DNA of 64,000 bases, from assembly GCA_039630085.1 (NCBI GenBank), contig JBCNVM010000001.1, positions 128,001-192,000 of the forward strand. Direction: 5' to 3'. Both the position numbers and the translations under genes were made by a program. Origin of the DNA: Candidatus Caldarchaeales archaeon (GTDB lineage: Archaea > Thermoproteota > Nitrososphaeria_A > Caldarchaeales > Calditenuaceae). Below are positions 1 through 20,098 of the stretch, piece after piece. The notes beneath the pieces were generated by a model, which saw only the letters and a program-made list of their open reading frames with translations, did no database searches and was not told where the DNA came from. Each line of letters starts with the position of its first letter. Position 1 is the stretch's first letter.

Positions 1-50
1 TGGCCCTCGCATTCGCGGTGACCGCGCTGGTCCTCTTCGCCACCTCCTGA
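1..50 (+). CDS. 3' end of an upstream membrane-protein gene (partial)
   Basis: Hydrophobic reading ...ALAFAVTALVLFATS ending in TGA at 48-50. Confidence 0.45.
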   Translation, partial: ALAFAVTALVLFATS

Positions 51-116
51 CCGGATTCTCCCCCGGAGGCTAACCCTTTATGACCGACCTGACTGGACGT
101 GTGGGCTGACTCCCGC

Positions 117-2000
117 ATGTCGGAGGAACAGGGGACGTACAAGCGGGAAGTGGGGTGGTTCGGTTCCTTCTCGATGGGGTACGGCGACGTCGGGGCCGAC
201 ATCTTCATCGCGCTCGGCGTCACGATGCTCTACGCCGGAGGGGCCGCTCCGCTGGCCTTCCTGATCGGGTCGCTGGCCTACGTCGCGATCGCCCTCTCCT
301 ATGGAGAGCTCGCACCCGCGTACCCGTACGCCGGAGGAGTCCACGTCTACGCGCTGAGGGCCTGGAACACCCTGCTGAGCTTCGTCGCGGGCTGGGCCCT
401 GATGCTGGACTACCTGCTCTGCATCTCCCTCTTCGCGACCGCCTCTGCAGGCTACCTCCACTTCATCTTCCCGGAGCTCGAGGCCCTCTCGCTCGACCTC
501 GGGCCCGTGGAGTTCGGCTCCCTGGGCCTGACCTCGGCGCTGCTCGTCGCCTTCCTCTTGGGCCTCAACTACGTCGGGATCAAGTACTCCGCGGGCCTGA
601 TCTCCTCCATAGTCGCCTTCAGCATAGCGGTCCAAGCCGTCATCTTCCTCGTGGGTTACCTCACCTCCTTCGATTCCGAGCGCTTCGCCGAGCAGGTCAC
701 GAGACTCGGGAGCGGAGACTTCCTGCCCGAAGTCGAGTACGTGCCCTTCTTCGACGCCCACACCAACAACTTCCTCTACGGCGTGACGATCGCGATGGCC
801 TCGTTCATCGGGGTCGAGTCGATCGCCCAGGCCGCGGAGGAGACGAGGGCCCCTCATAGGTGGATCCCGAGGGCCGCGAAGCTCGCGGCGCTCCTCGTGC
901 CCCTCTCCGTTCTCCTGATGAGCGTCCTCGCGATAGGCGTCACGGACGTGCAGACCATCGTCGACTCGATCGAGAACCCGGTGGCCGCCCTCGTGAGCAG
1001 GTTCAGGGTCTTAGGTGAGGAGCTCGCACTGGTCGTCGCGGTCACCGCGATGATCATGTCGCTGGCCTCCTCCAACACGGGCGTGATAGGTGTCTCCAGG
1101 TTGACCGCCTCGATGGGGAAGCTCTCCCTCCTCCCGCACTGGCTCTACAGGCTCCACCCGAGGTTCGGGACGCCGACGAGGACCATCCTGCTCTTCGGAG
1201 GGATCGGGCTGGCCCTCACGCTCCCCGGCGACATACCGCTCCTCGCGAGCCTCTACAACTTCGGCGCCATGATCGGTTACATCATGCTGCTCCTCTCGGT
1301 GATAGCGCTCAGGTACAAGGAGCGGAGCGTCTTCAGGCCCTGGCAGCTGAGGCCCTCCGTCGTCATCAGGTGGAAGGGGAGGGAGCTCGAGGTCCCCGTG
1401 CTGGTTGCGCTCGGGCTGGCCGCGACCACCGCCATCTTCGCCCTCTACCTCCTCCTCCACCCGCTGGGGAGGTTGCTCGGGGCCGTCTGGATGGCGGTCG
1501 GGGTCCTGGGCTACGCCCTCTACCGCAGGAGGGTGCTGGGACTCGCGGTCGTCGACACCAGCGAGCGGGAGATGGTGATCCCTGCCGGATACAGGATGAG
1601 CCTCACGGTCTTCGTCAGGCCCTTCGAGAACCCGGAGACGGTCGTCAGGACGATAACCTCCTACACCGACACGAGGTTCGAGATCAAGCTCGTCAGCGTC
1701 ATCGAGAGGGAGATGGCGGGCGAGGCCGAGCCGGACACGGAGGCCGTGGAGCGCCAGCTCGAGCGGGTCGCCTCCAAGCTGAGGGCGAAGGGTTACTCGG
1801 CGACCTACGAGGTCCAGGTCGGGGACTTCGAGGAGGCGGCGGTCAGGGAGCTGACCTCGGGGACCGCGGACTTCGTCGTCTACTTGGTCAGGGGCTTCGA
1901 GAAGGCCTCGGTCCTGAAGGCCTCAGCCCACAGCGAGAGGATCCATTTGGTGCTCTCCAGATTCCCCGGGAGGGTCGTCCTCCTCAAGAAGACCGTCTGA
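117..2000 (+). CDS. APC-family amino acid permease with C-terminal USP-like cytoplasmic domain
   Basis: About 12 TM segments; GADIF, YGEL..AYPYAGG and FIGVESIAQAAEE motifs; ATG at 117. Confidence 0.88.
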   Translation: MSEEQGTYKREVGWFGSFSMGYGDVGADIFIALGVTMLYAGGAAPLAFLIGSLAYVAIALSYGELAPAYPYAGGVHVYALRAWNTLLSFVAGWALMLDYLLCISLFATASAGYLHFIFPELEALSLDLGPVEFGSLGLTSALLVAFLLGLNYVGIKYSAGLISSIVAFSIAVQAVIFLVGYLTSFDSERFAEQVTRLGSGDFLPEVEYVPFFDAHTNNFLYGVTIAMASFIGVESIAQAAEETRAPHRWIPRAAKLAALLVPLSVLLMSVLAIGVTDVQTIVDSIENPVAALVSRFRVLGEELALVVAVTAMIMSLASSNTGVIGVSRLTASMGKLSLLPHWLYRLHPRFGTPTRTILLFGGIGLALTLPGDIPLLASLYNFGAMIGYIMLLLSVIALRYKERSVFRPWQLRPSVVIRWKGRELEVPVLVALGLAATTAIFALYLLLHPLGRLLGAVWMAVGVLGYALYRRRVLGLAVVDTSEREMVIPAGYRMSLTVFVRPFENPETVVRTITSYTDTRFEIKLVSVIEREMAGEAEPDTEAVERQLERVASKLRAKGYSATYEVQVGDFEEAAVRELTSGTADFVVYLVRGFEKASVLKASAHSERIHLVLSRFPGRVVLLKKTV

Positions 2001-2053
2001 GCCCGAGGGGTCATCCTTAAAGCCAGATCGCACATCCGAGGTGGGACTCGGAA

Positions 2054-2323
2054 TTGGCCGGTGTGAAGGCGCTGGTCCACCTCTTCGTCGAGCCCGGCCG
2101 CCTCGAGGCCGTCGGGGAGGCCCTCTCGAGGTTCGATGAGGTGACGGACGTCTACGAGGTGACCGGGGAGTACGACATCATCGCGATCGTGAACGCCACC
2201 GACGTGACTTCGTTCAGGAGGTTCATCTCGGAGAAATTGCTGACCATTCCCGGGATAAGGAGCGCGGTCTCCTCGATAGTGCTGCACGTCTACAAGAAGG
2301 GCGGGAAGGTCACCTACGAGTGA
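2054..2323 (+). CDS. Lrp/AsnC ligand-binding (RAM) domain protein, no HTH
   Basis: VYEVTGEYDIIAIV motif, 89 aa. Confidence 0.85.
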   Translation: MAGVKALVHLFVEPGRLEAVGEALSRFDEVTDVYEVTGEYDIIAIVNATDVTSFRRFISEKLLTIPGIRSAVSSIVLHVYKKGGKVTYE

Positions 2324-2464
2324 GGTCTCCGCACTTTCAGCCACCTCCCCCTCTTGGCTGATAGCTCGGCGTTCCCTCCGGCGCGGGCGTGAACCCGGAG
2401 TCTACGCGCTCAGAGTCCTTTGGCCTGCGGACCGGGTTCGGTGGGCGTACGAGGTGCCTCTGCC

Positions 2465-4378
2465 ATGGACCTTGAGGTGCGTAGCGGCGTCGGGTGGTCC
2501 AAGGTCACCCCCAAGGTCGTCAGCCTCTCTCATGAAGTCCGGGGCAACCAGCTCGAGTCCCTCGAGTTCACGCTGCTCGACGAGGACGTCTCGGTGGGGC
2601 AACAGGTGCGGTGCCTGCAGGGCGGGGTTCCGAGGTTCGAGGGCGTCGTGGTCAACGTCCGCAAGTCGGTGAGCGGCGACGCTGGTCGGCGGTCGGTCTG
2701 TCAGGCCCTCTCCGAGCTCGTCCTTTGGGACCGACACGTCGTCTTCAGGGAATACGCCGCCGGGACTCGTGCGGGCGCGATCATCAAGGACTTGGCGAGG
2801 CTGGAGAGCGGCGTCGATATCACCAACGTCGACGAGTCAGACACACCGGCCCTTACGGCTCCTTGGGCTGTTCAGAACGAGTCCGCGCTCAAGGTCATGA
2901 CAGCCGTAGCCCGCGGCACCAACTACTATCTCAGGATGCTGCCCGGCCGGAGGTTGTACTTCAAACCAAAGGCTCCTAGCGCGCCCGTGGCCATCATCGA
3001 CAGAAGCATCGTGACCGCGGCCGAGTACAGCGAGGATCGGTGGCGCCTGAGGAACAGAGTGATCGTCGCGGGCGCCGGTGGGCAGGTCCTAGCGGACGTG
3101 AGCGAGGGTGCCGGCGATCTCCCGGTCGTCGTGCACGACCCGTTCCTCACCTCCACCAGTGAGGCTCAGCGCCGTGCCATTGTCAGGTTGGCTCTCAACA
3201 GGGAATACGGCCGGCAGCTCAGGGTCACCTTACGCCGCGATTTCGTCGAGCGGACCCAGATAGACCTCTTCAGCACGGTGAAAGTCGAACTGCCGGAGCT
3301 TGGGCTCTCGGGCGTCGACATGCACGTCGTGGGCATTAGCTACGCGCCTCCGGATCCGTACGTCGTGTTAGAGGTAGGTGGGAGACTCGAGCTTCTCGAG
3401 GACTACCTGAGCGAGGCCGTCGGCGGGGATTTAGCAGCGCGATTCGGTCAAACGGTTTCTGTCGCAGAAGAACTGGCGACAATGAGGTCCACTCTCTACC
3501 ACACCAAGAGGGTCGTCGCGGCCGTCGGCTATAGCTACGTGACCTACGTCAACAAGAGGCCGATCACCGTCCACAGGGGCGCGAACGTCAAGCTCAATGA
3601 GTCAACAGGTGAGGTTGAGCTCGCCTCGGGCAGGACCAACGGCTGGTTCGAGGTCGATTTCTTCCCGCCGTCGGAGCGCTTCGCCCGCTGGGGCGCCATC
3701 AGCTGGGTCTCCAGACCACGAGACGGTAGCATCACGGTCGAGGCGCGGGACGCGTCGGGCTCCGTGCTCCGGAGCATGAGCGACCCCAAGATCGCCGGCT
3801 GGTCACTCGCGAAGAGATTACCGCTCCGCAGGTGGCCCGGGCGAATTCACGGCATGACTAGGTATCCGGCCTACGCCAAGTGGGGCGCTGGCTTGGGCGC
3901 GCGGGCCATGGACGCGCGGATGGGCTACCTGATCGGCTCGTGCGTCCGGCTTGAGCCCACGAGTTACGGAACCACCGGCGAAATATTCTATCCGAGCGCG
4001 AAAAATCTCAACATCGACCTCGCATGGATCAGACGTGTCAATATCTATCTCCATTCCTTTGAAGATAACGTAACGTGTGCCATCCGCCTTCATGAAAGCG
4101 CGAACGCCTATCGAGAGGCTATACTGCCGATACCGCAGGGAGGCGTTTGGAATCTCTACACGATCAACGCCAGCACGCTCCGGACCGTGGGCAATCCGAC
4201 AAAAGTGAATTGGATCAGCATATCATGCGCTTATCCTCTATTGATTGACAGCGACTACGTTTTCCACGAGCTCTGGCATGAGAAGTTGACCGTTCGATTT
4301 AACCTCTCGAGACCGAGCGCGACCGCGGCGAGTCCACAAATATCGCACGTGCTCATTACATACGTTGATAGGTCGTGA
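2465..4378 (+). CDS. Phage tail baseplate hub-like protein (GPD/gp44/Tal-like) with C-terminal beta-sandwich/CBM-like domains
   Basis: N-terminal ~300 aa show hub-type pattern (FEGVVVNV, GAIIKDLA, ESALKVMTAVA, RLYFKPK, RLRNRVIVAG, EAQRRA); C-terminal aromatic beta-rich region; ATG at 2465. Confidence 0.65.
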   Translation: MDLEVRSGVGWSKVTPKVVSLSHEVRGNQLESLEFTLLDEDVSVGQQVRCLQGGVPRFEGVVVNVRKSVSGDAGRRSVCQALSELVLWDRHVVFREYAAGTRAGAIIKDLARLESGVDITNVDESDTPALTAPWAVQNESALKVMTAVARGTNYYLRMLPGRRLYFKPKAPSAPVAIIDRSIVTAAEYSEDRWRLRNRVIVAGAGGQVLADVSEGAGDLPVVVHDPFLTSTSEAQRRAIVRLALNREYGRQLRVTLRRDFVERTQIDLFSTVKVELPELGLSGVDMHVVGISYAPPDPYVVLEVGGRLELLEDYLSEAVGGDLAARFGQTVSVAEELATMRSTLYHTKRVVAAVGYSYVTYVNKRPITVHRGANVKLNESTGEVELASGRTNGWFEVDFFPPSERFARWGAISWVSRPRDGSITVEARDASGSVLRSMSDPKIAGWSLAKRLPLRRWPGRIHGMTRYPAYAKWGAGLGARAMDARMGYLIGSCVRLEPTSYGTTGEIFYPSAKNLNIDLAWIRRVNIYLHSFEDNVTCAIRLHESANAYREAILPIPQGGVWNLYTINASTLRTVGNPTKVNWISISCAYPLLIDSDYVFHELWHEKLTVRFNLSRPSATAASPQISHVLITYVDRS

Positions 4379-4381
4379 GGC

Positions 4382-5449
4382 ATGACAGAGTATCTGATAC
4401 TGAGCAAGGATAGGGCTTTACCGCTGATGTGGGAATTCCAGAGAGTAGTCACGGCGCCCCCACAACAGAGCACATTATCCTTCAATCTGCCACAGAGCGT
4501 TCAAACCCGTTCACCTTCCTCTACTCCCAATTACTTCGAGATAATGGGACTAGGCCAGCATGCATTCGTGTCGTTTACCACACCACAACAACCCACTCCG
4601 CAAAACGTCAAAAGTATAACTCAACCTCGGTTAACAAACGCTAATTTCACCATCCCAGGCGTAGCGGGGTCGGTGCAAGTCGTCCTGGAGCTTTGGACCG
4701 TCGGCAGTAACGGTCTTCCTGCCACGAAGCTACGTGACCTCGCGAGCGGCCCCCCTAATGTAACGTTCTCGGCCGATTTTTCATCGGCGCCCGTGTTGGA
4801 TTGGAACACCACGTATGCCGTCGTGATGCGCCCCACCTCGTTTTCGGCCGGTGCGTGGTTCAGAGTCACCTATGGAGACGCCGGTTCAGCGCCTCTATCC
4901 CCGGGTAACTTCGGCAGGTCGCTGAACGCCGGTTCGTCGTGGACGATTTTCTCCAATCAAGCCAGCGGAAGCGTGGCGATTCAATTCCGTTACGAATTAG
5001 GACCGTGGCGTTTCTTCCTGAACCGTCCAAACGAGGCGGCGAACTATTACATCAGCTTCACGCAAAGCGGACCATCAGGCATCACTTACCTCGGCGACCT
5101 AGTGAACGGTTCTCCCTATACAAACCCGACGTCCATCAGCGGAGAGTTCGAATACACGGTGCTCGCCTCTACCACCTCTGCGATCAGCAATAGTTCAATT
5201 ACGGCTACGCTCCAGTGCGAGCTGAGATATGAGAAGAACCCGATGACGATCGACATGTTCAACGTCGCAGAGGCGTATCTTTCGCGCATCGACTTCCTAG
5301 ACGGCGGGTCAATCCAATTGAACGACAGCCCCGATCAGGTCTTCTCGGGTAACGCGGGCACGTCGCTGACCTTCAACCCGATGGTCCTCGTCTGGGAGGC
5401 GAGGGTCCTCAGCGGAAGGGTGAGGCTCACGATGATGGTGTTCGAGTGA
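4382..5449 (+). CDS. Putative virion receptor-binding/structural protein, S/T/N-rich all-beta
   Basis: Low-GC ORF between hub and chaperone genes; jelly-roll-like VLELWTVGSNGLP...TTYAVV...SLNAGSSWT. Confidence 0.5.
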   Translation: MTEYLILSKDRALPLMWEFQRVVTAPPQQSTLSFNLPQSVQTRSPSSTPNYFEIMGLGQHAFVSFTTPQQPTPQNVKSITQPRLTNANFTIPGVAGSVQVVLELWTVGSNGLPATKLRDLASGPPNVTFSADFSSAPVLDWNTTYAVVMRPTSFSAGAWFRVTYGDAGSAPLSPGNFGRSLNAGSSWTIFSNQASGSVAIQFRYELGPWRFFLNRPNEAANYYISFTQSGPSGITYLGDLVNGSPYTNPTSISGEFEYTVLASTTSAISNSSITATLQCELRYEKNPMTIDMFNVAEAYLSRIDFLDGGSIQLNDSPDQVFSGNAGTSLTFNPMVLVWEARVLSGRVRLTMMVFE

Positions 5450-5868
5450 TGCCGGAGATGCGCGAGATCGACACAGAGTCCGGCCTCCCCGTCGACGTCG
5501 CGAGGAAGCTGAAGGAGCTCGAGGCGAGGGCTCGGGTTGTCAAGCTCGACGCAGAAGGGCGGGTCGTGATCGGCGACGCCCATGACTTCCCGATCGAGGT
5601 GGTCACGGCCGAGCTCACGGTAGTCTCCAAGCGGGAGGTGAAGGAGAACGTGAGGCCCGTGGATGAGAAGGCCCTCGAGGTCCAGCTGCCGGAGCCGAAG
5701 CGGTATGAGATCGGCGGGAAGACCGTGATCGGGTTCCTTGAAGACGAGCTCCCCGAGGTCGTGAGGACCGGAGGGGGCTACAGTCTGACCGCGCTGATGG
5801 CGATCCTAATCCACAAGGTGAACAGGCTCGAAAGGATCGTGCGTCAAATGGAACGCGGGTCTAAGTAA
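5446..5868 (+). CDS. Tail-fibre intramolecular chaperone (peptidase S74/ICD) domain protein
   Basis: S-x4-K dyad in VSKREVKENVRPV, then PKRY, IGFLEDELPEVV and C-terminal coiled coil LMAILIHKVNRLE. Confidence 0.75.
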   Translation: MMPEMREIDTESGLPVDVARKLKELEARARVVKLDAEGRVVIGDAHDFPIEVVTAELTVVSKREVKENVRPVDEKALEVQLPEPKRYEIGGKTVIGFLEDELPEVVRTGGGYSLTALMAILIHKVNRLERIVRQMERGSK

Positions 5869-5946
5869 TTCGCTGCCCATGTCTCACCGTTCATATAGTG
5901 GAACTGCGAACGGAGTTTCGAGACCGACCGAGGTTAGGGGGACGCC

Positions 5947-5980
5947 GCCGGGGTGCCCTAGCCCGGTAGGGGGGTGGCCT
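5947..5980 (+). pseudogene. Truncated 5' half of tRNA-Ser (att-like fragment)
   Basis: GCCGGGGTGCCCTAGCCCGGTAGGGGGGTGGCCT: acceptor strand, D arm and 5' anticodon stem; stops at position 33. Confidence 0.85.
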
Positions 5981-6028
5981 CTTTAGAACTAAAGATACTA
6001 AAATCATCAAATATCCCTAATTGAGCAA

Positions 6029-6036
6029 TTTAAATA
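6029..6036 (+). promoter_or_regulatory. TATA box of tRNA-Ser(GCT)
   Basis: TTTAAATA starting 55 bp upstream of the tRNA. Confidence 0.6.
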
Positions 6037-6083
6037 GTGGGAATGTGAATGATAATAAGCGAGGCTACATGGGTTCGAGTGAT

Positions 6084-6185
6084 GCCGGGGAGCTCCAGCC
6101 AGGTCGGAGGGTGGCCTGCTAAAAGTCGTTGCAGTGAGCCACTGCCCCCTTTGGGGGCTCGAGGGTTCAAATCCCTCCCCCGGCG
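6084..6185 (+). tRNA. tRNA-Ser(GCT) with 15-nt intron at 37/38 (6122-6136)
   Basis: Acceptor GCCGGGG/CCCCGGC, anticodon GCT at 6118-6120, BHB helix CTGC/GCAG, long variable arm, T arm GAGGG-TTCAAAT-CCCTC, G discriminator. Confidence 0.92.
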
Positions 6186-6267
6186 AACCCGAAGAGATCA
6201 TCTAACAACAGCGTATTACTGCAACCGGGTGAAACCAAAGCAGTATCGACAGCATACTGGCCGTCCC

Positions 6268-6897
6268 TTACTTCAGAATCTCGCCGGTCTGAAGGTACCA
6301 AAGCAGAAGGTCTAGGGCCTCGGGTTTGATCCCCAACTCGTCAGCCCAGTTCAGGAATTCGCGCTCGAGCTCGAGATACTTCCTTCTCGTTAGGGACTTC
6401 GGGACGGACTCCAGCCTTCCGGCCCGGACCATCCACCTGAGCACGTGCCGGTCGAGCACAGCCAGGCCCTCGATCCCCACGTTCCTAAGGAAGTGCGAGG
6501 CCTCCTTGAGTCCCATGCCCCATGCCTCCTCGACGAGGACCTCCCGCGCCTCGACCGGGGGGAGCGTCAGCACCTCAACGATCCTCGGCGGGTCTCCGAG
6601 GAGGAGGGGCCTGTTCATCGACAAATATCTCGCCTTCGCGTTGTGGAACCTGACTCCGCGCCTCCTCAGCACCTCCGCGATGGACTTCCGGCTGCCCTTC
6701 AGCAACAGCCCCCTCGACTTGAGCTCCTCGACAGCGACGAGGGCGCTGGAGGCCTTGGACTGAGGCGTGAGGACGCAGAAAGCGAGCTCCTCGAAGAGCC
6801 TCGCGGCATCACGCCTGTCGACGGACCTGAACTCGGCAAGCCTCGCCTCGATCGCACCCCTCACGTCATCGTAGACGGTCAGGAGGAAAGCTCCCAC
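6268..6897 (-). CDS. ogg: 8-oxoguanine DNA glycosylase/AP lyase (archaeal Ogg)
   Basis: ELAFCVLTPQS, RFHNAKA and GMGLKEASHFLRNVG...LDRHVLR motifs; probable GTG start at 6897. Confidence 0.9.
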   Translation of the reverse strand: MGAFLLTVYDDVRGAIEARLAEFRSVDRRDAARLFEELAFCVLTPQSKASSALVAVEELKSRGLLLKGSRKSIAEVLRRRGVRFHNAKARYLSMNRPLLLGDPPRIVEVLTLPPVEAREVLVEEAWGMGLKEASHFLRNVGIEGLAVLDRHVLRWMVRAGRLESVPKSLTRRKYLELEREFLNWADELGIKPEALDLLLWYLQTGEILK

Positions 6898-7018
6898 GTC
6901 GAGCCCTCGGCCAGGAGCAGCGCTGCGCGCGGAGTTCCGACCACTCACTGCCAAGCCCGCACATGAGCGATCGCCTCGGATTTTATCTGAGCCCGAGGAT
7001 CCGCCCTTCCGGAGGCTC

Positions 7019-7852
7019 ATGGCGCGAGACCGGGAGTGGAGGGAACACGTGGACCTCGGGAAGTCGATCGACGTAGGCGGAATCAGGACGTTTTGCGTGG
7101 ACCTCGGTGAGGGGAGTCCTGTGCTGCTACTGCACGGATGGGCCTCGTCGTCTTTCGCGTGGAGGAGGAACTACCGCGCGCTGGCAGAGAGGTTCAGGGT
7201 GATCGCGGTGGACCTGCCGGGCTTCGGCCTCTCCGAGCGGCTCAAGTCCGGTTACGGGCTCTCGCAGGTCACCGAGCATCTCCTGAGTTTCGCTGAGGCC
7301 CTGAAGATCGAGCGGTTCTCTTTGGTGGGGCTCTCCATGGGCGGGGTGATCGCGGCGCAGATCGCACTCACGCGCCCGGACCGAGTGGGCAAGCTCGTGC
7401 TGGTCAACCCGGCCTTCGGGGTCGGGAGGGCAGGGCGGGCGCGCCTCATGGGGACCGTCGCCCGGAGACGCCCCGTCGCGTCGCTGCTGAGAGCGTTGCT
7501 GGTCAACAGGTACACCGTGAGGCGGGTGCTCAGAGACGCCGTCTGGGACGAGGAGGTCGTGAACGACGAGGCGGTCACGGGGTATTACGAGTCGATAAGG
7601 AGCTCGGGGAGGACGCTCCTGGACGCGTTCGAGGTCATTAGGGGCTTCGACCCGACTGCGCTGGAGTCCCTGAGGGTCCCCACGCTCTTCATGCTCGGAG
7701 AGAGGGACAACCTAGTGCCCTGCGTAGGGAACCTCGAGCTCGCGAGGAGGATCGGCTCTGAGGTTTTGTTGGTCCGTGACGCGGGGCATTTGGTTCAGGA
7801 GGAGAGGCCCGAAGCCTTCAACGCGGCCGTGATGGACTTCCTCTCGAGGTGA
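7019..7852 (+). CDS. Alpha/beta hydrolase
   Basis: LLHGW, DLPGFGLS, GLSMGG nucleophile elbow, AGHLVQEE. Confidence 0.9.
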   Translation: MARDREWREHVDLGKSIDVGGIRTFCVDLGEGSPVLLLHGWASSSFAWRRNYRALAERFRVIAVDLPGFGLSERLKSGYGLSQVTEHLLSFAEALKIERFSLVGLSMGGVIAAQIALTRPDRVGKLVLVNPAFGVGRAGRARLMGTVARRRPVASLLRALLVNRYTVRRVLRDAVWDEEVVNDEAVTGYYESIRSSGRTLLDAFEVIRGFDPTALESLRVPTLFMLGERDNLVPCVGNLELARRIGSEVLLVRDAGHLVQEERPEAFNAAVMDFLSR

Positions 7853-7903
7853 CCTGATGCCTCGATATCCTCAATTCTACCCGCGGGGCGGAGCGGTCGG
7901 GGG

Positions 7904-8497
7904 ATGAGCGAGGGCGCGCTGATCGCGATCGAGGGCCTCGACGGCGCCGGGAAGACCGCGACCGCGACGTGGCTCGTGGACCGACTTAGGGAGATGGGGT
8001 ACAGGTCCAGCTACACGAGGGAGCCGACGGACGGGCCCATCGGGAGGCTCCTCAGGGGCGACGCGCTGGGCGACTTCGGCGACCCCCGGATCGACGCCCT
8101 CCTCTTTGCGGCCGACAGGCTATACCACCTCTCCCGAACCATAGAGCCACTGCTGAACGAGGGCTACGTCGTCGTCTCGGACAGGTACGTCCACTCGTCG
8201 ATCGCCTACCAGGGCGCGATGACCGGCGACAGGGCCTGGGTCGAGGAGCTGAACAAGTTCGCGAGGGAACCGGACCTCGCCGTCTACCTCGACGTCGACC
8301 CGGAGACGGGCCTGGGGAGGAAACGGGGCGCCAAGCGGACCAAGTTCGAGAGGCCCGAGGTCCTCGAGAAGGTGAGGAGGCTGTACCTTCAGCTCTGCGA
8401 CGAGGGGAGGCTCGTGCTGGTCGACTCCCGGAGGGACTTGGACTCGGTCAGGGAGGAGGTGCTCAGGGAGGTCGAGAGGGTCCTCCGCGGGCTCTGA
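7904..8497 (+). CDS. tmk: Thymidylate kinase
   Basis: IEGLDGAGKT P-loop, TREP, LLFAADR, SDRYVHSSIAYQG. Confidence 0.95.
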   Translation: MSEGALIAIEGLDGAGKTATATWLVDRLREMGYRSSYTREPTDGPIGRLLRGDALGDFGDPRIDALLFAADRLYHLSRTIEPLLNEGYVVVSDRYVHSSIAYQGAMTGDRAWVEELNKFAREPDLAVYLDVDPETGLGRKRGAKRTKFERPEVLEKVRRLYLQLCDEGRLVLVDSRRDLDSVREEVLREVERVLRGL

Positions 8498-8557
8498 GGG
8501 GTGCCCGGAGGTCCGGCAACAGGTCGTCGCGGAGCGTTTTTTACCGGAGCAGCAGGC

Positions 8558-9577
8558 ATGATACTGGGTGCCGCGTTGGGGGAGTACGGCCCGCTCGTCG
8601 ACTCGTTCGGCAGGGTCGCCAAGAAGCTGAGGATCTCGGTGACCGACAGGTGCAACTTCAGGTGCTCCTTCTGCATGCCTAGGAACCCCATCTGGCTCGA
8701 CAGGAGTGAAGTCCTCACGCTCGAGGAGATCGCGAGGCTGACGGCGATCTTCGTCCGGATGGGCGTCGACAGGGTCAGGCTCTCGGGGGGCGAGCCGCTG
8801 GTGAGGAGGGGCATCGTGGACCTCGTGAGGATGCTGAGGGAGATCGAGGGGCTGAGGAGCCTCGCGATGACCACGAACGGCTACTACCTGGCGGAGCTTG
8901 CGGAGCAGCTCAAGTCCGCGGGCCTCGAGAGCGTCACGGTGAGCCTCCACAGCCTCAAGCCCGAGAGGTACGAGGACGTGATAGGCGTGCGAGGGGTCTT
9001 CAGGAAGGTGGTCGAGGGGGTCCGGAGGGCCCTCGAGGTCGGCATGAGGGTGAAGCTGAACGTCGTGGTGATCAGGGGATGCAACGACGACGAGCTGCTC
9101 GACTTCGCGAGGCTCGCGAGGGAGTCCGGCGTCGTGGTCAGGTTCATCGAGTACATGCCCTTCGACGGCGAGAGGCTCTGGAGGCCCGAGCTCGTCGTGA
9201 GCGGGAGGGAGGTCGTCGAGGCCATCTCGAGGGCGTACCCGCTGGTCCGGGAGCCGAGGGAGCCCGGGTCCACCTCCAAGAATTACAGGTTCGCCGACGG
9301 CTCTCCGGGAGGCATCGGGGTCATCACCTCCATCACGGAGCCCTTCTGCAGCGACTGCGATAGGGTGAGGTTGACGGCCGACGGCAAGATCGTCCCATGT
9401 CTTTTCAGCAAGTCCAGCTACGACGTCAAGCCGCTGTTAAGGGGCGGGGCCTCTGACGAAGAGATCGCCACCTTTATCCGGGAGGCCTTCAGGAGGAAGT
9501 TCGCAGGGGTCGAGGCGATGCTCAGGTCCGGGTCGATGCCCGAGCACGTCAGGGCTATGTACACTGTAGGTGGTTGA
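8558..9577 (+). CDS. moaA: GTP 3',8-cyclase
   Basis: CNFRCSFC, FCSDCDRVRLTADGKIVPCL, C-terminal GG. Confidence 0.95.
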   Translation: MILGAALGEYGPLVDSFGRVAKKLRISVTDRCNFRCSFCMPRNPIWLDRSEVLTLEEIARLTAIFVRMGVDRVRLSGGEPLVRRGIVDLVRMLREIEGLRSLAMTTNGYYLAELAEQLKSAGLESVTVSLHSLKPERYEDVIGVRGVFRKVVEGVRRALEVGMRVKLNVVVIRGCNDDELLDFARLARESGVVVRFIEYMPFDGERLWRPELVVSGREVVEAISRAYPLVREPREPGSTSKNYRFADGSPGGIGVITSITEPFCSDCDRVRLTADGKIVPCLFSKSSYDVKPLLRGGASDEEIATFIREAFRRKFAGVEAMLRSGSMPEHVRAMYTVGG

Positions 9578-10070
9578 GGTGGGGACCGAGGGCGTCCACG
9601 TTCCCAAGCTCACGGTCAGGGACGTGCTCCTCAAGGTCGGGAACGTGATCGACGGCAACCAGACGGTCAGGGAGGCGGCGATGATGATGGACAGGCTGGG
9701 TGTCGGGAGCCTCCTCGTGGAATCGGAGGGGAAGCTGGTCGGCATCGTGACGGAGAGGGACCTGGTCGTGAGGGTGCTGGCGACAGGGCTCGACCACACG
9801 AACACGAGGGTCAGGGACGTGATGTCCTATCCGATCATCGCGGTCTCCCCAGAGACTACCCTGGAGGACGCGGTGATGCTGATGGTCAACAACGGTTTCA
9901 GGAGGCTGCCCGTGATCGACAAGGAGGGAAGGCTGCTCGGCATGGTCACGATCGGCGAGGCCGCGAAGGTCCTGGCCGCAGCCCAGAGGACGGTGACCGG
10001 GCTCTTCGAGCTGCTGCTCAGGGTCGCGAGGCCCGCCGAAGAGAGGACCAGGACTCCGATGTACGGGTAG
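9570..10070 (+). CDS. CBS-pair protein
   Basis: LVGIVTERD and RRLPVID motifs. Confidence 0.88.
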   Translation: MVEVGTEGVHVPKLTVRDVLLKVGNVIDGNQTVREAAMMMDRLGVGSLLVESEGKLVGIVTERDLVVRVLATGLDHTNTRVRDVMSYPIIAVSPETTLEDAVMLMVNNGFRRLPVIDKEGRLLGMVTIGEAAKVLAAAQRTVTGLFELLLRVARPAEERTRTPMYG

Positions 10071-10080
10071 CTCCTCCGTG

Positions 10081-10689
10081 TTACCTGCCCCTGGCCCTAG
10101 AGAACCTCCTCTCGACGTCGTCCCAGTTCACGACGTTCCACCAAGCCTCCACATAACTGGCCCTGTCGTTTTTGTATTGTAAATAATAGGCATGCTCCCA
10201 TACATCGATTGCCAGAAGAATGGGTAACTCTGCTAACAAGTGCAGGTTCTGCTTCTCGATCTGAGTCAGGACGAGCGCGTCGGTCTCCGGGTCGTAGAGG
10301 AGGAGGGCCCAACCGACTCCCTCAACGGTCTTGGCCGCGTCGCTGAAGAGCTTCTTGAAGTTCTCGAAGCTCCCGAACTGCTGGTTGATCTTGTCGGCGA
10401 TCGCTCCACCGGGCTTTCCGCCTCCCTTCCCCGCGGGCGCCATGTTCGGCCAGAAGACCGAGTGGAGCTTGTGGCCGTCGAGGTTGAAGCTCAGGTCCCT
10501 CAGCACGGCCCTGACGTCGACCTGCGCCTCGCCCTTAGCGTGCCTCTCGATCTTCTCGAGGGCGGCGTTGGCTCCGTTGACGTAGGCCTGGTGGTGCTTC
10601 GTGTGGTGCAGCCTCATTATCTCCTCGATGATGTAGGGCTCGAGGGCGTTGTACGCATAGGGCAGCTGGGGGAGCTCGTACTTCTTCAT
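10081..10689 (-). CDS. sod: Fe/Mn superoxide dismutase
   Basis: HHTKHHQAYV, GHKLHSVFW, DVWEHAYYLQY. Confidence 0.97.
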   Translation of the reverse strand: MKKYELPQLPYAYNALEPYIIEEIMRLHHTKHHQAYVNGANAALEKIERHAKGEAQVDVRAVLRDLSFNLDGHKLHSVFWPNMAPAGKGGGKPGGAIADKINQQFGSFENFKKLFSDAAKTVEGVGWALLLYDPETDALVLTQIEKQNLHLLAELPILLAIDVWEHAYYLQYKNDRASYVEAWWNVVNWDDVERRFSRARGR

Positions 10690-10729
10690 CGCGCGACCCC
10701 CTCTCCGCCCGGTAATATAGCGATCGCGG

Positions 10730-12421
10730 CTACACGGGGGTCGTCGGGGCCGCGGCCCTCCCCCTGCTCCTCAGAGCCGCCACGAGGCCTTCGGGCATCT
10801 TGGTGAACGGCGGCGCAGGTTCTCCGATCCCGTGCCCAGGCTCGAGCCTCCCTCCGTCCGTGAGCGCCCTCACGGTCCACCTCTCTCGGGGGACCCTGAA
10901 GGTGAGCCGCAGCTGCTCCGACGCCGCGGGCGCGATCGGCCAGAGGAGCACGGAGACCGCGTAGGCGATCTGCGCCGCCACATAGAGCGTGGACGCCGCG
11001 CGGGCCGGGTCCCTCTTGACCTCCGCCCACGGCTCCCTCGAGCTGATGTAGACGTTGCCCCGCCTCGCGAGCTCCAGCAGCAGGCCCACCGAAGACCTGA
11101 AGCTGTTCCTCTCCATTTCCTCCCCGAACCTCCCCGCGAATTCCGGGACGGTCATCAGTAGCTCCTCGCCCTCCGCGTCGAGCGGCCCCGGCTCGGGCAC
11201 CCTCCCCGAGTAGTACCTGGCGAGGAAGCTCAGGACCCTGTGGACGAAGTTCCCGAGGACGTCGTTGAGCTCGTCGTTGATCACGTCCCTGAAGTGGGTC
11301 GCGGAGAAGTTGGAGTCGGCGGTCTCGGGCCTGATCCTGATCAGGTAGAACCTCCAGTAGTCCGGGTCGAGGATCTCGAGGGCCTCGTCGAGCCAGACGC
11401 CCACGCCGGCGCTCTTCGAGAACTTCTGGCCCTCGTAGGTGAGGTACTCGGTCGCGAGGACGTTCCAGGGCAGGTTGAGCCGGTCGTCGTAGGCCATGAG
11501 GAGCGCGGGGAGGATGATCGTGTGGAAGGGGATGTTGTCCTTCCCGATGAAGTAGACGCTCCTCGCCTCCCTGTCGTACCAGAACTCCCTCCACCTCTCC
11601 CTGTCGCCGGTGAGCTCGGCCCACTCGATGCTGGCGGTGATGTAGCCGAGGACCGCCTCGAACCAGACGTAGATCGTCTTCCCCTCCGCACCCGGGAACG
11701 GCGCGGGTATGCCCCACTTGTTGTCCCTCGTCACCGACCGGGGCTTCAGGCCCTCCGCGAGCCAGCTCAGCGTGAAGTTCCTGACGGAGTCGGGGAACCT
11801 GGGGTTCGAGAGGAACCAAGACTTGACCCTCTCCTCCAGCGCAGGCAGGTCGAGGAACCAGTGGTCGGTGGACCTGACCGCGGGCCCGGAGCCGCATATC
11901 GAGCACCTGGGCTCGACGAGGTTCATCGGGTCGAGGACCCTCCCGCACCGCTCGCACTGGTCACCCCTCGCCCTCTCGTAGCCGCAGTGGGGGCACTTCC
12001 CGGTCACGAACCTGTCCGGGAGGAAGATCCTGCAGGACGGACAGTAGAGCTGCTGGACCGACTCCCTGAAGACGTAGCCCCTGTCGTAGAGCTCCGCGAA
12101 GAACCTCCGGGTGAACTCGATGTGGTGCCTCGAGTGCGTCCTCGAGTAGTTGTCGAAGGCGATCCTGAACCTCCCGAAGAGGTCCTTCACGAGCTCGTGC
12201 ATCCTGTCGGTCATCTCCTGCGGGGAGACGCCATCCTTCACCGCTTGGAGCTCGATCGGCGTGCCGTGCTCGTCGGAGCCGCTCACGAAGAGCACCTGGT
12301 CTCCCTTGGAACGCATGTACCTCGCGAAGACGTCAGCGGAGAGCTCGGAGCCTATCAGCGTCCCCAGATGGGGGACCGAGTTGATGTAGGGCCAGGCTCC
12401 GCAGACGATCCACTTCGCGAG
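10730..12421 (-). CDS. metG: Methionyl-tRNA synthetase (start codon non-canonical or uncertain)
   Basis: AWPYIN..PHLG, GSDEHGTPI, Zn knuckles, YVWFEA, GKDNIPFH, KFSKS; frame extends past 12316 to an in-frame TGA at 12428-12430. Confidence 0.93.
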   Translation of the reverse strand, partial: LAKWIVCGAWPYINSVPHLGTLIGSELSADVFARYMRSKGDQVLFVSGSDEHGTPIELQAVKDGVSPQEMTDRMHELVKDLFGRFRIAFDNYSRTHSRHHIEFTRRFFAELYDRGYVFRESVQQLYCPSCRIFLPDRFVTGKCPHCGYERARGDQCERCGRVLDPMNLVEPRCSICGSGPAVRSTDHWFLDLPALEERVKSWFLSNPRFPDSVRNFTLSWLAEGLKPRSVTRDNKWGIPAPFPGAEGKTIYVWFEAVLGYITASIEWAELTGDRERWREFWYDREARSVYFIGKDNIPFHTIILPALLMAYDDRLNLPWNVLATEYLTYEGQKFSKSAGVGVWLDEALEILDPDYWRFYLIRIRPETADSNFSATHFRDVINDELNDVLGNFVHRVLSFLARYYSGRVPEPGPLDAEGEELLMTVPEFAGRFGEEMERNSFRSSVGLLLELARRGNVYISSREPWAEVKRDPARAASTLYVAAQIAYAVSVLLWPIAPAASEQLRLTFRVPRERWTVRALTDGGRLEPGHGIGEPAPPFTKMPEGLVAALRSRGRAAAPTTPV

Positions 12422-12464
12422 CGCCCTTCACCTCCACCGGACCGCTACTTCCCGCCCTCGAGCT

Positions 12465-12713
12465 TTAGCCTTTGCCCTGCCTGGTCTTCAGGATCACGTA
12501 GAGCCTCCCCAGCTTGGCCGCGCCGGACTCGAGCCTGACCTCGACGTAGGGCCTCTCCCTCCGGCCGAAGACGTTCGAGACGTACCCGACCCTGCCCTGC
12601 CCCTCCGCGTAGACCGGCGCCCCGATCTCCGGGACCTCCCTCGCCCTGAGGACGACCGAGTCCTTCAGGCGGCGGACGACGTCGCCCAGCGTCACGACCC
12701 TCTCCCTGCTCAC
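12465..12713 (-). CDS. gar1: H/ACA RNP Gar1/Naf1-like protein
   Basis: P.IGAPVY...VGYVSNVFGR.ERPYVEV; usual rps8e-srp19-gar1 order. Confidence 0.8.
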   Translation of the reverse strand: MSRERVVTLGDVVRRLKDSVVLRAREVPEIGAPVYAEGQGRVGYVSNVFGRRERPYVEVRLESGAAKLGRLYVILKTRQGKG

Positions 12714-12988
12714 CCTCTCATCCTCTCCGCGAGCCGCAGGAGGACCTCGCCCTTACTGACGCCCTTCGGGGGTCTCACTAGCACCGCCGACCCCGGCCTC
12801 CACCAGAACGCCGGGTGCCTGAGTTCAAGCTTCTCGGCCTCCCAGCCCAGCGACGCAGCGGCCCTCAGGACGTCTTCTTGGGTCGGGTTCTTCCTCGCGA
12901 GCCTCGTGGGGACCCTGCGGCCCTCGGACCTGCTCAGCTCCCTGTTGAAGTAGTGCGTCCAGACGACGTACCCGTCCTTCCTGATCAT
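12710..12988 (-). CDS. srp19: Signal recognition particle 19 kDa protein
   Basis: VVWTHYFN..LSRSEGRRVP. Confidence 0.92.
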   Translation of the reverse strand: MIRKDGYVVWTHYFNRELSRSEGRRVPTRLARKNPTQEDVLRAAASLGWEAEKLELRHPAFWWRPGSAVLVRPPKGVSKGEVLLRLAERMRG

Positions 12989-13374
12989 GACGACTTAGGC
13001 TGGACCAAGACCGCGTTGATGACGCCGTCAGCGGACGGCTTCGAGGTGACCCTTGCCACGCCCAGCGGGGTGTCTATCAGCGCGCCCCGAGTCAGGACGC
13101 CCATCCTCGTGAAGTCCGGGTTTGCAGGGTTCTGGACGACCTTCAGTATCTCGGCCCTGACGGTCTTGGACCCGTCGAAGACGTTGGCGTACCTCGCGTG
13201 CCTCACCCTGACCTTTGTGTTCCCTCCCCTCGCCCTCTCGACCAGCCTCTCCTCCTCGCCGACCGTCGGCAGCAGCGGGTCCCTTCCCCTCTCATACCTC
13301 CTCCTCTTCCTGTGGACGCCCTTCTTACCTCCCGTCTTCTTACGCTTGTGGAGGTCGCCGTGCCAGACCGTCAT
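12985..13374 (-). CDS. rps8e: 30S ribosomal protein S8e
   Basis: HKRKKTGGK, RARGGNTK, ARVTSKPSADGVINAVL. Confidence 0.97.
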   Translation of the reverse strand: MTVWHGDLHKRKKTGGKKGVHRKRRRYERGRDPLLPTVGEEERLVERARGGNTKVRVRHARYANVFDGSKTVRAEILKVVQNPANPDFTRMGVLTRGALIDTPLGVARVTSKPSADGVINAVLVQPKSS

Positions 13375-13501
13375 CCTCCGACCGCATCAATCGTCCACCA
13401 AATAAAGCTCCGCGGCCTCCTGAGGCTTCACCGGGTTCTGGACTTCGTCGAGCTGAGGTTCCAAGCCGGCTTGCGGCGAAGAGCTGGGCAGCGACCGCCC
13501 C

Positions 13502-13723
13502 GTGGAGCTGGAGTCTTACTCCGACTCGGTCCAGGGGAACGTCGCGTCGATCAGGGAGGCGCTCCAGCCCCCGGAGGGGGTCGATGACCAAGGGCCCGAG
13601 ATCGTGGACCCTGAGCCGGAGGACGGCAGGCTCGAGGCGCAGGTCGATGACAACTTCAGTCGGACCGCGTTCGCGGTTCTTGAGGCCTCTGCCGAGCTGA
13701 ACGCGGGCGGTCGAGGTTCATAA
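13502..13723 (+). CDS. Hypothetical protein, possibly a decayed paralogue of the next gene
   Basis: RLEAQVDDNFSRTAFAVL resembles RIDANFKWTVGLV of 13751-14245. Confidence 0.3.
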   Translation: MELESYSDSVQGNVASIREALQPPEGVDDQGPEIVDPEPEDGRLEAQVDDNFSRTAFAVLEASAELNAGGRGS

Positions 13724-13750
13724 CAGCTTAATTACCGGTCGCCGACCATT

Positions 13751-14245
13751 GTGCTCGGGTTGACGGTTGGTTACGACCTCGAGGCGCGCCTCGACGCTGT
13801 CGAGAGGGATGTCGTTGCGGTGCTCGTGCGCCTTGAGAACATCGACGAGAGGCTGAGGCTCATCGAAAGGAACGTCGACGAGAAGCTCAAGCTAACGGAA
13901 GAGAAGATCAACAAGAGGCTGGAGGTCGTCGAAGGGAGGTTGGACGACGTAGGGGGAAGATTGGAGGCCGTCGAGAGGAGAATAGGGGTCGTCGAGAACA
14001 GGATGGAGGCCGTCGAGAGGGGCCTAGACGCCGTCGAGAAGAGGCTCGACGTTGTTGAGAGGAGGCTCGATGCCGTCGAGAAGAGGCTCGATCTCGTCGA
14101 GAAGGGGCTAGGGCGCGTCGAGATCAGGCTCGATTCCCTCGTGGACAGGATCGACGCCAACTTCAAGTGGACCGTGGGGCTAGTGGTCGGGGGCTTCGTC
14201 GCGGTGATATCGACCTCGGTCCTCCTGAGGCTCCTCCTCGGGTGA
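13751..14245 (+). CDS. Membrane-anchored coiled-coil protein (DUF1640/CCDC90-like architecture)
   Basis: LDAVEKR-type heptads followed by a C-terminal TM helix. Confidence 0.75.
   Translation: MLGLTVGYDLEARLDAVERDVVAVLVRLENIDERLRLIERNVDEKLKLTEEKINKRLEVVEGRLDDVGGRLEAVERRIGVVENRMEAVERGLDAVEKRLDVVERRLDAVEKRLDLVEKGLGRVEIRLDSLVDRIDANFKWTVGLVVGGFVAVISTSVLLRLLLG
13919..14128 (+). repeat. Degenerate 21-bp coding tandem repeat, about 10 units
   Basis: Units like ctcgatgccgtcgagaagagg encode the heptads. Confidence 0.7.
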
Positions 14246-19537: not shown

Positions 19538-20098
19538 TTGCCGTTATTCGACAGGCGGAGGAAGAGGCTCGAGAAGGTCGACAGGGTGGTTGCAGGCCTG
19601 TCGATCCTCAGGGACAGGCTCGACAGGAGGATCAGGGAGATGAACCGGCGACAGCGCCAGCTCTTCGAGCAGGTCGTCGCCGCGAAGTCGGAGGGCGACG
19701 ACGAGAGGGCCCTGATCTACGCGAGCGAGCTGAAGCAGTTGAGGGCGATGATGAACCTCACGATCAGGAACGAGCTGATTATAGAGGCGGTGATGAACAG
19801 GCTGAGCGCGGTCAGGGACCTGGAGGACCTCAGGAACTACGTCGCGCCGATAAGGTCCCTGGTCTCCTCGATCGCACCAGACGTCAGGGGGATCCTGCCG
19901 GAGGTCAGCGTCCACGTCCACAGGGTCCAGTCAGACCTCGAGGACCTCTCGCTGGAGATGGGGAGCGTCCCGAACGTGGTCCTCAGGCCCATCGAGCCCG
20001 ACGAGGAGGAGGTGCGGAGGATACTGGAGGAGGCGAGCGAGATCGCGAAGAGGAGGCTGAGGGACTCGACGCCGGAGCCGCCCTCAAGGGCCCTCTAG
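19538..20098 (+). CDS. Snf7/ESCRT-III (CdvB-like) protein
   Basis: RALIYASELKQLR helix; EEVRRILEEA...PEPP C-terminus. Confidence 0.8.
   Translation: MPLFDRRRKRLEKVDRVVAGLSILRDRLDRRIREMNRRQRQLFEQVVAAKSEGDDERALIYASELKQLRAMMNLTIRNELIIEAVMNRLSAVRDLEDLRNYVAPIRSLVSSIAPDVRGILPEVSVHVHRVQSDLEDLSLEMGSVPNVVLRPIEPDEEEVRRILEEASEIAKRRLRDSTPEPPSRAL

Follow-up and report, generated by a model that had tools for sequence, protein, structure and literature searches.

A three-gene locus of a Caldarchaeales archaeon as the probable tail tip of a head-tail element dispersed over three genomic sites

A 64,000-nt stretch of contig JBCNVM010000001.1 (GCA_039630085.1) from a hot-spring archaeon of the Candidatus Caldarchaeales, here called the window, carries a module of three open reading frames (ORFs) that we interpret as the probable tip of a siphovirus-like tail. 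The three ORFs (2465-5868, forward strand) run in one direction, are translationally coupled and have housekeeping genes on both sides, with a gap of 3 nt between ORF1 and ORF2 and an overlap of the ORF2 stop codon with the ORF3 ATG (TGATG). An amino-acid permease and an AsnC-type regulator are encoded upstream of the module, and an Ogg glycosylase (convergent), a hydrolase, the thymidylate kinase Tmk, MoaA, SOD and MetRS downstream. All three frames were intact, as an initial annotation of this DNA had stated. The ATG at 2465 agrees with the N-termini of ORF1 homologues, and the frame is already open from a TTG at 2420. The features are collected in Table 1, in which and below G numbers denote genomes (G000 being that of the window), L numbers loci read and C numbers contigs of the genome concerned.

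Table 1. Features of the tail-tip locus and of the two related loci of G000, with lengths in amino acids (aa) and GC content at third codon positions (GC3). Single ranges without a contig name are window positions.
Feature	Coordinates	Strand	Basis or content
ORF1, baseplate hub / tail-tip protein by predicted fold	2465..4378	+	637 aa
ORF1 residues 1-330, gp27/gp44/gpD-type hub domains (model)	2465..3454	+	Foldseek; best-conserved part of the family; GC3 0.81
ORF1 residues 355-637, beta-sandwich extension, probably ligand-binding	3527..4375	+	model beta-rich, pLDDT mostly >85
ORF2, all-beta peripheral tail-tip protein, candidate receptor-binding protein	4382..5449	+	355 aa
ORF2 residues 39-203, lectin/CBM-like jelly-roll domain (model)	4496..4990	+	VIA-align
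ORF3, docking motif, coiled coil and S74-type domain	5446..5868	+	140 aa (139 from ATG 5449)
Ser61...Lys66 codons of ORF3, predicted self-cleavage dyad	5626..5643	+	11-sequence alignment
Spacer preceding ORF1, which may hold a promoter or 5' leader	2324..2464	+	140 nt, GC-rich
C5 locus (L023 7889-15324)	C5 15888-23323	both strands	tube, tape measure, portal, scaffold-like, capsid-like
C45 locus (L024 7030-12231)	C45 65029-70230	two divergent sets	TerL, ABC-ATPase/GNAT, connector

Sequence matches of ORF1 to described families were weak (Pfam YQBQ, E 0.026; phrog_1887 'tail protein', E 1.4e-4). Against Pfam YQBQ (PF24032) the protein scored 14.4 bits, under the cut-off of 27, with 21.8 bits for its homologue in L020, and a profile of the hub family found no match among PDB sequences. 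A total of 106 homologues were found, many of them with a precomputed PF24032 (PF24032.2) label. A structural model built on 50 homologues (mean predicted local distance difference test score, pLDDT, 85.1) gave 221 matches at E<=1e-3 in a Foldseek search against PDB. Hubs matched by residues 1-330 included the HFTV1 tail chain (9h4p_BD; E 5.4e-21), MuSo2 (3cdd; E 8e-16) and Mu gp44 (1wru; E 6.1e-15, template modelling (TM) score by target 0.72), the latter two with TM scores by target of 0.70-0.73. Taken together, 3cdd, 1wru and 9ki1_G aligned at E 1e-14 to 1e-15 over ~330 columns, with TM scores by target of 0.66-0.73. This part of ORF1 is alike in predicted fold to Mu gp44, P2 gpD, T4 gp27, XkdQ/YqbQ and the HFTV1 tail-tip chain, and its gene follows the tape-measure gene in relatives. 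By modelled fold, ORF1 is a gp27/gp44/gpD-type baseplate hub. It differs from known baseplate hubs in its low YQBQ score and in an added beta-sandwich extension of ~280 residues, joined to the hub part by a helical linker (residues 331-354) with pLDDT below 50. The extension was less conserved than the hub part and had a GC3 of 0.74. Some homologues carry additional Laminin_G_3, DUF2341 or PF06439 domains at the C-terminal end, and a search of the ESM Atlas with the ORF1 C-terminus gave sub-threshold leads only, toward CBM_4_9-like folds (TM ~0.5). Residues 355-637 are, from the model, probably involved in ligand binding. The hub-like protein with beta-sandwich extensions that the initial annotation had proposed was borne out by the model in both of its parts.

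ORF2 was modelled as an all-beta protein, as earlier described, with 28 strands and one short helix (pLDDT 89.9, predicted TM score 0.75). Structural alignment of residues 39-203 with VIA-align revealed likeness to the lectin-like domain of Cwp84 (Z 11.6), the Bxb1 tail tip (Z 8.9), the short-tail-fibre CBD of cyanophage A-1(L) (Z 7.3) and CBM32, CBM61 and CBM15 (Z 6-7). A longer segment, residues 22-282, aligned with the phi812 baseplate chain 9euf_0 (Z 12.6). Neighbours in BFVD found with Foldseek were phage tail proteins (E 8e-7 to 1e-4, low TM), and the family profile had no match among PDB sequences. The family is small, with 15 representatives at E<=1e-3 among the 1.84 billion searched, and its gene always lay between the hub and ORF3 homologues. 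Conservation was highest in residues 1-25 and 276-355 and lowest between them. The G006 protein is a divergent member of the family (profile E 4e-90, 26% identity). On the strength of the modelled lectin/CBM-like domain, ORF2 probably binds a cell-surface glycan.

ORF3 was aligned with ten homologues (n = 11). From the N-terminus the alignment consists of a motif in which D9, G13 and L14 are invariant, a coiled coil of variable length, a block containing Ser61 (invariant) and Lys66 (at least 90% of the 11 sequences), and a conserved C-terminal segment. The five-residue spacing of Ser and Lys is that of the catalytic dyad of endosialidase-type S74 domains, as known from the literature on endosialidases and the T5 fibre. 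Two of the 11 family members matched Pfam Peptidase_S74 (PF13884; best E 2.4e-5) and the window protein gave no such match at E<=1, while the PDB tail spike 6eu4 aligned with the Ser...Lys block at E 0.048. ORF3 appears to share with the S74 domains of endosialidases, tail spikes and fibres a Ser-x4-Lys block followed by a helix-rich C-terminal segment. The usual S74 domain ends a long spike or fibre, whereas the part of ORF3 that precedes the predicted cleavage site has only ~60 residues (~110 in other genera). In G007, a genome of the sister genus, the gene at the same position encodes a 99-aa protein with the same N-terminal motif and coiled coil and without the chaperone domain. Because a docking motif and coiled coil precede the S74 domain, and because G007 has this N-terminal module without the domain, we read ORF3 as a mini-fibre that carries its own folding domain. 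The earlier description of ORF3 as an S74-type chaperone thus holds for the domain and not for the protein as a free chaperone. Trimer formation and self-cleavage at Ser61 are predicted.

No integrase, capsid, terminase, sheath or tube gene was found in the window among the 62 of 71 ORFs of at least 70 aa that were scanned against Pfam (the remaining nine are 71-102 aa), in agreement with what had been noted before. Apart from the module, nothing in the window matched 58 head-tail cluster proteins from relatives by tblastn. No tRNA or Rfam family was found at window positions 1-14000, and so there is no tRNA-type integration site beside the module. The initial annotation had offered two origins for so isolated a set of genes, a recent remnant of a head-tail provirus or a retained satellite locus serving a tailocin, gene transfer agent (GTA) or adhesin with its other parts elsewhere. 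We searched for the rest of the element by tblastn of the same 58 proteins against G000 followed by family scans, and two further loci were found, one on C5 with tube, capsid-like and tape-measure genes and one on C45 with a terminase gene.

One strand of the C5 locus encodes a tape measure (531 aa), a gp10-like protein (139 aa), p103, a tube protein (307 aa) and a repressor-like protein (64 aa), and the other strand a portal (414 aa), p346, a scaffold-like protein (153 aa) and a capsid-like protein (329 aa). The tube matched PF18906 at E 1e-21 and the gp10-like protein its family at E 1.1e-9. The tape measure had 14 PHROG matches, 11 of them to tape-measure families (E down to 1e-11). The portal matched PF04860 at E 1.2e-5, under the cut-off, the scaffold-like protein phrog_673 at E 6e-5 and the capsid-like protein phrog_2522 at E 1.8e-4. 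LigT and P-type ATPase genes flank the locus on one side and a cytochrome bd oxidase gene on the other. The C45 locus contains the large terminase subunit, TerL (437 aa; phrog_2, E 4e-44), beside a 506-aa ABC-ATPase/GNAT fusion, and divergent small genes including a Mu gp36-like connector, between genes for OTCase and aspartate-semialdehyde dehydrogenase. Head-tail structural and packaging genes are present in the G000 loci, which had no integrase or replication genes in or alongside them and included some small ORFs without family matches. The ATPase/GNAT gene was also seen to accompany the element elsewhere, at 45-55% identity (L021 16749-17960, L018 14-1225, L015 14000-15592).

Homologues from all three G000 loci were found within ~17.6 kb in G007. 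This stretch encodes TerL (43% identity to G000), p185, tube (30%), p91, tape measure (36%), hub (50%), ORF2 (31%), p99, portal (29%), ATPase/GNAT (45%) and a capsid-like protein. Since the three loci are represented in this one stretch, the simplest history would be a single ancestral cluster that was dispersed in the genus of the window. The hub was detected in 21 of 41 sampled relatives and ORF3 in 14 of 41; a search with the hub family profile found it in half of the order's genomes (38 of 76), among them 21 of the 43 of high quality, and in 12 of the 15 genera. In seven relatives a compact head-tail cluster ended with a hub, a protein at the ORF2 position and ORF3. In L020 (G038), the order was S78 protease, HK97 capsid, adaptor, S8 protease, tube (PF18906), gp10-like protein, tape measure, hub, a 538-aa protein, the ORF3 homologue and TerL. 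The hub gene follows the tape-measure gene in L013, L015 and L017-L022 but not in G000, where the tape measure is on another contig.

Several further observations were made on these contiguous clusters. Those of L013, L020 and L022 (G024, G038 and G036; two genera) have a downstream flank of aldo/keto reductase, ABC-2 permease, ABC ATPase and PadR genes in common, with capsid identity of 74% and hub identity of ~42%. The shared flank and the difference between these two identities suggest that the contiguous, CalSub-Pro-like element type (discussed below) is likewise passed on vertically while its tail tip changes fast. An S8 (subtilisin-family) protease gene occupies an unusual place between the connector genes and the tube gene (L020 3346-4263, with homologues in L013, L017-L019, L021 and L022). 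A defence-type pair of RloB-like and AAA_21/AAA_15 ATPase genes (L020 15466-17261) lies between the cluster flank genes in G038 and not in G024. Four IMG/VR contigs (L037-L040) carry hub relatives with 41-61% identity in the best segment; their tube, portal and gp10 are nearest the G000 type and their tape measure and hub nearest the contiguous type, a mixture of gene types that points to mosaicism among these elements.

The scattering of the loci in G000 could in principle be an assembly artefact that hides an active, inducible provirus, and it is true that G000 is a metagenome-style assembly of 66 contigs (89.9% complete) and that the G003 assemblies break inside the locus. However, the module lies ~130 kb inward from both ends of a contig of 269 kb, amid housekeeping genes and with no integrase found among the window ORFs scanned, and each of the three loci sits between the same housekeeping genes in G003, G004 and G006 as in G000 (4 of the 7 genus genomes). 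In addition, G001, which is assembled in three contigs, has TerL and the hub on different contigs, at least ~0.4 Mb apart. We regard a hidden provirus as very improbable. With 66 contigs in G000, the distances between its loci are minimum values.

Gene order within each locus was conserved in the four species. Across the seven genus genomes, TerL was found in seven, the tape measure in seven (one truncated), the tube and the capsid-like gene in six each and the hub in five. Pairwise NG86 estimates of dN/dS between G000 and G003 were 0.11 for the capsid, 0.13 for the portal, 0.20 for the tube, 0.27 for the tape measure and 0.11 for TerL, with 0.21-0.23 for the hub, 0.31 for ORF3 and 0.01-0.26 for flanking genes. 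In the same pair the dS of the C5 capsid, portal, tube and tape-measure genes was 0.25-0.27, compared to 0.18-0.27 for their flanks. The independent pair G004 and G006 gave dN/dS of 0.16 for TerL, 0.17 for the tape measure, 0.16 for the tube and 0.13 for the portal. Between G000 and G004 the dS of the three module genes was saturated and the ratio undefined, and for ORF2 no genome pair had unsaturated dS. The GC3 of the head, tube and packaging genes was 0.89-0.95, as in host genes, and the identity matrices of TerL and the tape measure mirrored those of flanking genes, grouping G000 with G003, G004 with G006 and G001 with G002. Given the same sites, a dS equal to that of the flanks and matching identity matrices, sequence comparison indicates that the head, tube and packaging genes are vertically inherited under purifying selection. 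The synteny and dN/dS ratios that the initial annotation had named as a check on retention were therefore in its favour for these genes. The recent provirus remnant that it had offered as the other origin was unsupported, because the locus is older than the divergence of four or more species (flank dS 0.2-1.1) and the frames are still open in G000 and G004.

The tail-tip genes gave a different picture, with a divergence unequal to that of host genes. Between G004 and G006 identity was 55% for the hub (residues 1-460), 30% for ORF2 and 44% for ORF3, compared to 86% for the adjacent permease and 88% for TerL, and dN was 0.38-0.90 for tail-tip genes and 0.06-0.08 for neighbours. ORF3 of G000 is nearer to that of G006 (66%) than to that of G004 (42%). 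Along the G000 module, GC3 fell from 0.81 in the N-terminal part of the hub to 0.61 in its last 138 residues and was 0.67 in ORF2 and 0.86 in ORF3. Divergence that departs from the host tree, together with this drop in GC3, points to a fixed module site at which alleles have been replaced in place. Retention with the host, as previously suggested, would then apply to the site and to the head, tube and packaging genes, which co-diverge with the host, and not to the individual module genes.

This separate history could mean that the module is independent of the C5 and C45 loci and acts as an adhesin on the cell surface, as a receptor decoy that wards off viruses or as a reserve targeting cassette for related viruses infecting the cell. 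Neither its phylogeny nor its GC3 follows that of TerL and the tape measure, G001 has an intact module without tube or capsid genes, and the IMG/VR contigs with related hubs are mosaics of A-type and B-type tail genes. We nevertheless consider independence improbable, as the fold of the hub is that of a plug of the tail tube and its gene lies directly after, or at most three genes from, the tape-measure gene in eight relatives' loci (G007, G009, G010, G014, G024, G036, G037, G038), a count that covers the loci read whose DNA upstream of the hub held viral genes. In the four genomes whose loci are syntenic, the module is also accompanied by head and tube genes, and neither an export signal nor a membrane anchor was noticed, no formal test having been made.

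The best explanation, which we hold with moderate confidence, is that the module is the tip of a siphovirus-like tail belonging to a head-tail element spread over three vertically inherited loci. As to anatomy alone, it is fairly likely that a head-tail element inherited with the host has been dispersed over at least three loci and that the one in the window encodes its tail tip. The element would no longer be one provirus. C5 would supply the portal, p346, scaffold and capsid from one strand and the tube, p103, gp10-like protein and tape measure from the other, C45 the terminase and ATPase/GNAT from one strand and connectors from the other, and the window the tail tip, so that the three loci together may make one particle. 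At the tip, ORF1 would form a trimeric hub that closes the tube and bears the C-terminal beta-sandwich, and ORF2 would be a peripheral protein whose lectin/CBM-like domain engages a cell-surface glycan. ORF3 would be a short trimeric fibre that docks by its conserved N-terminal motif, its folding aided by its own C-terminal S74 domain before self-cleavage at Ser61. Self-packaging of the element as one unit is implausible because its genes are dispersed over separate contigs. The particle might serve the host, in GTA-like DNA transfer or as a killer or other particle, and the window locus would then set which cells it binds. That the element still makes particles for its host we judge to be evenly poised. 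More tentatively, the genus may keep a working GTA-like particle split over at least three loci, with the window as its targeting locus, which would stay at one fixed site while being supplied again and again with new hub-tip, receptor-binding and fibre alleles from related viruses or elements. The satellite locus proposed by the initial annotation is thus supported, with probable partner genes on C5 and C45 and with all three loci syntenic in related species and under purifying selection, although the predicted particle has a head and is not a tailocin.

A number of observations weigh against the dispersed element. The calls of capsid, portal and scaffold in G000 are weak matches under curated cut-offs, and the element lacks a recognisable distal tail protein, small terminase or lysis gene. 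The history of the tail tip differs from that of the tape measure and TerL, so that its fit to the C5 tail can be inferred only by analogy with the gene order of relatives such as G007. Only four of the seven genus genomes were found to have all three loci. In G001 (91% complete, 3 contigs) the hub, ORF2, ORF3 and TerL are retained, the tape measure is reduced to its C-terminal 329 residues, beside LigT and P-type ATPase genes (L041 13608-14597, G001:C2), and neither a tube (PF18906) nor a Phage_capsid (PF05065) or G000-type capsid gene was detected. G002 (84% complete) and G005 (66% complete) did not yield a hub, though head and tube genes are present in both; the region around Ogg is rearranged in G001, G002 and G005, which leaves no basis there for comparison with an empty AsnC|Ogg site. 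In G003 the hub frame is broken near residue 126-135, with an intact 632-aa protein, 94-98% identical, in another assembly. The G006 hub (L036 6370-8905) consists of three coupled ORFs of 488, 199 and 143 aa, and may be either a re-architected tip or a broken gene; its middle ORF (199 aa) has no detectable similarity to the hub family.

Losses of this kind would also suit inert leftovers, an old provirus broken by rearrangements whose pieces decay slowly and have no present function. In G001 the tube, capsid and portal genes are gone, as is the 5' part of the tape-measure gene, the hub is interrupted or split in the two species just named, and the hub family has a scattered distribution in the order (38 of 76 genomes). 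Neutral decay should, however, give many stops and frameshifts, and the frames are open across a dS of 0.25-0.7 and beyond. The dN/dS of 0.11-0.31 in two independent species pairs is not above that of housekeeping flanks, GC3 is fully host-like and gene order per locus is kept in four species. Inert leftovers are therefore unlikely, and we retain the dispersed head-tail element as the preferred reading.

Upstream of the module, the intergenic region shares conserved blocks with G003 and, in part, with G004 and G006, and no AT-rich TATA-like box was found in it; a promoter function is possible. Conserved blocks were also observed ~30 nt before start codons on C5 and at the orthologous sites of G002-G006, namely CAG...GAAATTCC at the tube (~19234) and GTGAATTCC / ATGAAGTTCC at the portal (C5 ~19575), and CTGAAATTC was seen upstream of the hub in G004 and G006. 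These conserved upstream blocks may be a shared promoter element. A single shared motif of the CAG...GAAATTCC type (tube and portal, 4-5 species) was set aside, since G000 and G003 differ at the hub site and the loose pattern has 226 sites genome-wide.

Downstream of the module, the spacer after ORF3 (5869-6315; GC 0.56 against 0.64 genome-wide) ends AT-rich, with a TTTAAATA box ~10 nt before an 88-aa ORF (6049-6315). This ORF overlaps the end of Ogg and has no Pfam or PHROG match, and the G004 spacer is too short for such an ORF. Elsewhere in the window, a Snf7-like (ESCRT-III) protein, a weak match, and FtsZ are both encoded (19538-20098 and 58231-59292). Three DNA runs from one study, possibly of the source sample, were compared with the window and gave no usable result. 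One run gave no cover over ~4501-5100, and a candidate contig joint from 1864 to 5510 was disregarded because one of its sides rested on 20 letters with 80% likeness.

Should a working GTA-like particle encoded at these loci be confirmed, it would be the first multi-locus domesticated head-tail system with evolutionary support in TACK/Thermoproteota. If particles are made, they would provide a route of gene exchange or cell killing in the high-temperature communities of these uncultured archaea, and their targets on the cell surface could be read from the window locus. There is also a caution for provirus predictors, as a three-gene 'orphan' tail module may belong to a dispersed system.

Tailed-virus-derived particles kept by cells are well studied in Alphaproteobacteria, and in Nitrososphaeria-related archaea they have only been suggested. 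The voltae transfer agent (VTA) of Methanococcus voltae is an archaeal GTA, a phage-like transfer particle, and its host is a euryarchaeon. VTA is named in a paper on head-tail 'proviruses' of Thaumarchaeota/Aigarchaeota (Abby et al., 2018; PMC5797428), and for contiguous elements of this kind domestication was suggested in 2018 and 2019 (PMC5797428; PMC6563490). Among them, CalSub-Pro was described as a Caudovirales-type morphogenesis module with no recognisable att sites or replication genes, and its GTA-like domestication as 'a distinct possibility' (Krupovic et al., 2019; PMC6563490). Homologues of ORF1 and ORF3 occur in clusters whose genes correspond to those given there for CalSub-Pro (S78 protease directly before HK97 capsid, tape measure, TerL). 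The G000 TerL is only 25-28% identical to TerL of CalSub-Pro-type clusters. As presented in the relevant sections of these papers, CalSub-Pro-type elements are single contiguous clusters from single genomes, without selection or synteny tests, whereas the G000 element comprises three loci with descent and selection measured. Prophage regions in Caldarchaeales metagenome-assembled genomes were the subject of a 2023 report, and a 2025 preprint (bioRxiv 10.1101/2025.08.23.671958) named four head-tail families for Caldarchaeales, its main text containing neither 'GTA' nor 'domesticat'. No description of a split multi-locus head-tail element in these archaea was found in the literature, supplements lying outside the search. 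For a related Caldarchaeales element, a GTA-like origin has thus been suggested before; the split architecture was not found described. The GTA suggestion is now testable because the element can no longer be mobilised in one piece, its parts co-diverge with the host under purifying selection and its putative recognition locus has a separate, exchange-prone history.

A close parallel is RcGTA, the GTA of the bacterium Rhodobacter capsulatus, along with related alphaproteobacterial GTAs; a working G000 particle would be a convergent counterpart of RcGTA. There is no sequence kinship beyond shared folds, and the G000 element has an archaeal host. RcGTA has been demonstrated to form particles, to package host DNA and to be regulated by the host, all of which would be predictions for the G000 element. 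As far as RcGTA is described in the sources cited here, both are siphovirus-derived head-tail systems with several dispersed loci that are inherited with the host. The five loci of RcGTA were reported to be without a single shared evolutionary history, two of them with frequent, probably virus-mediated, transfer (Hynes et al., 2016; PMC5026251). An exchange-prone, putative recognition locus together with vertically inherited loci, as seen in G000, is the same pattern as that reported there for RcGTA.

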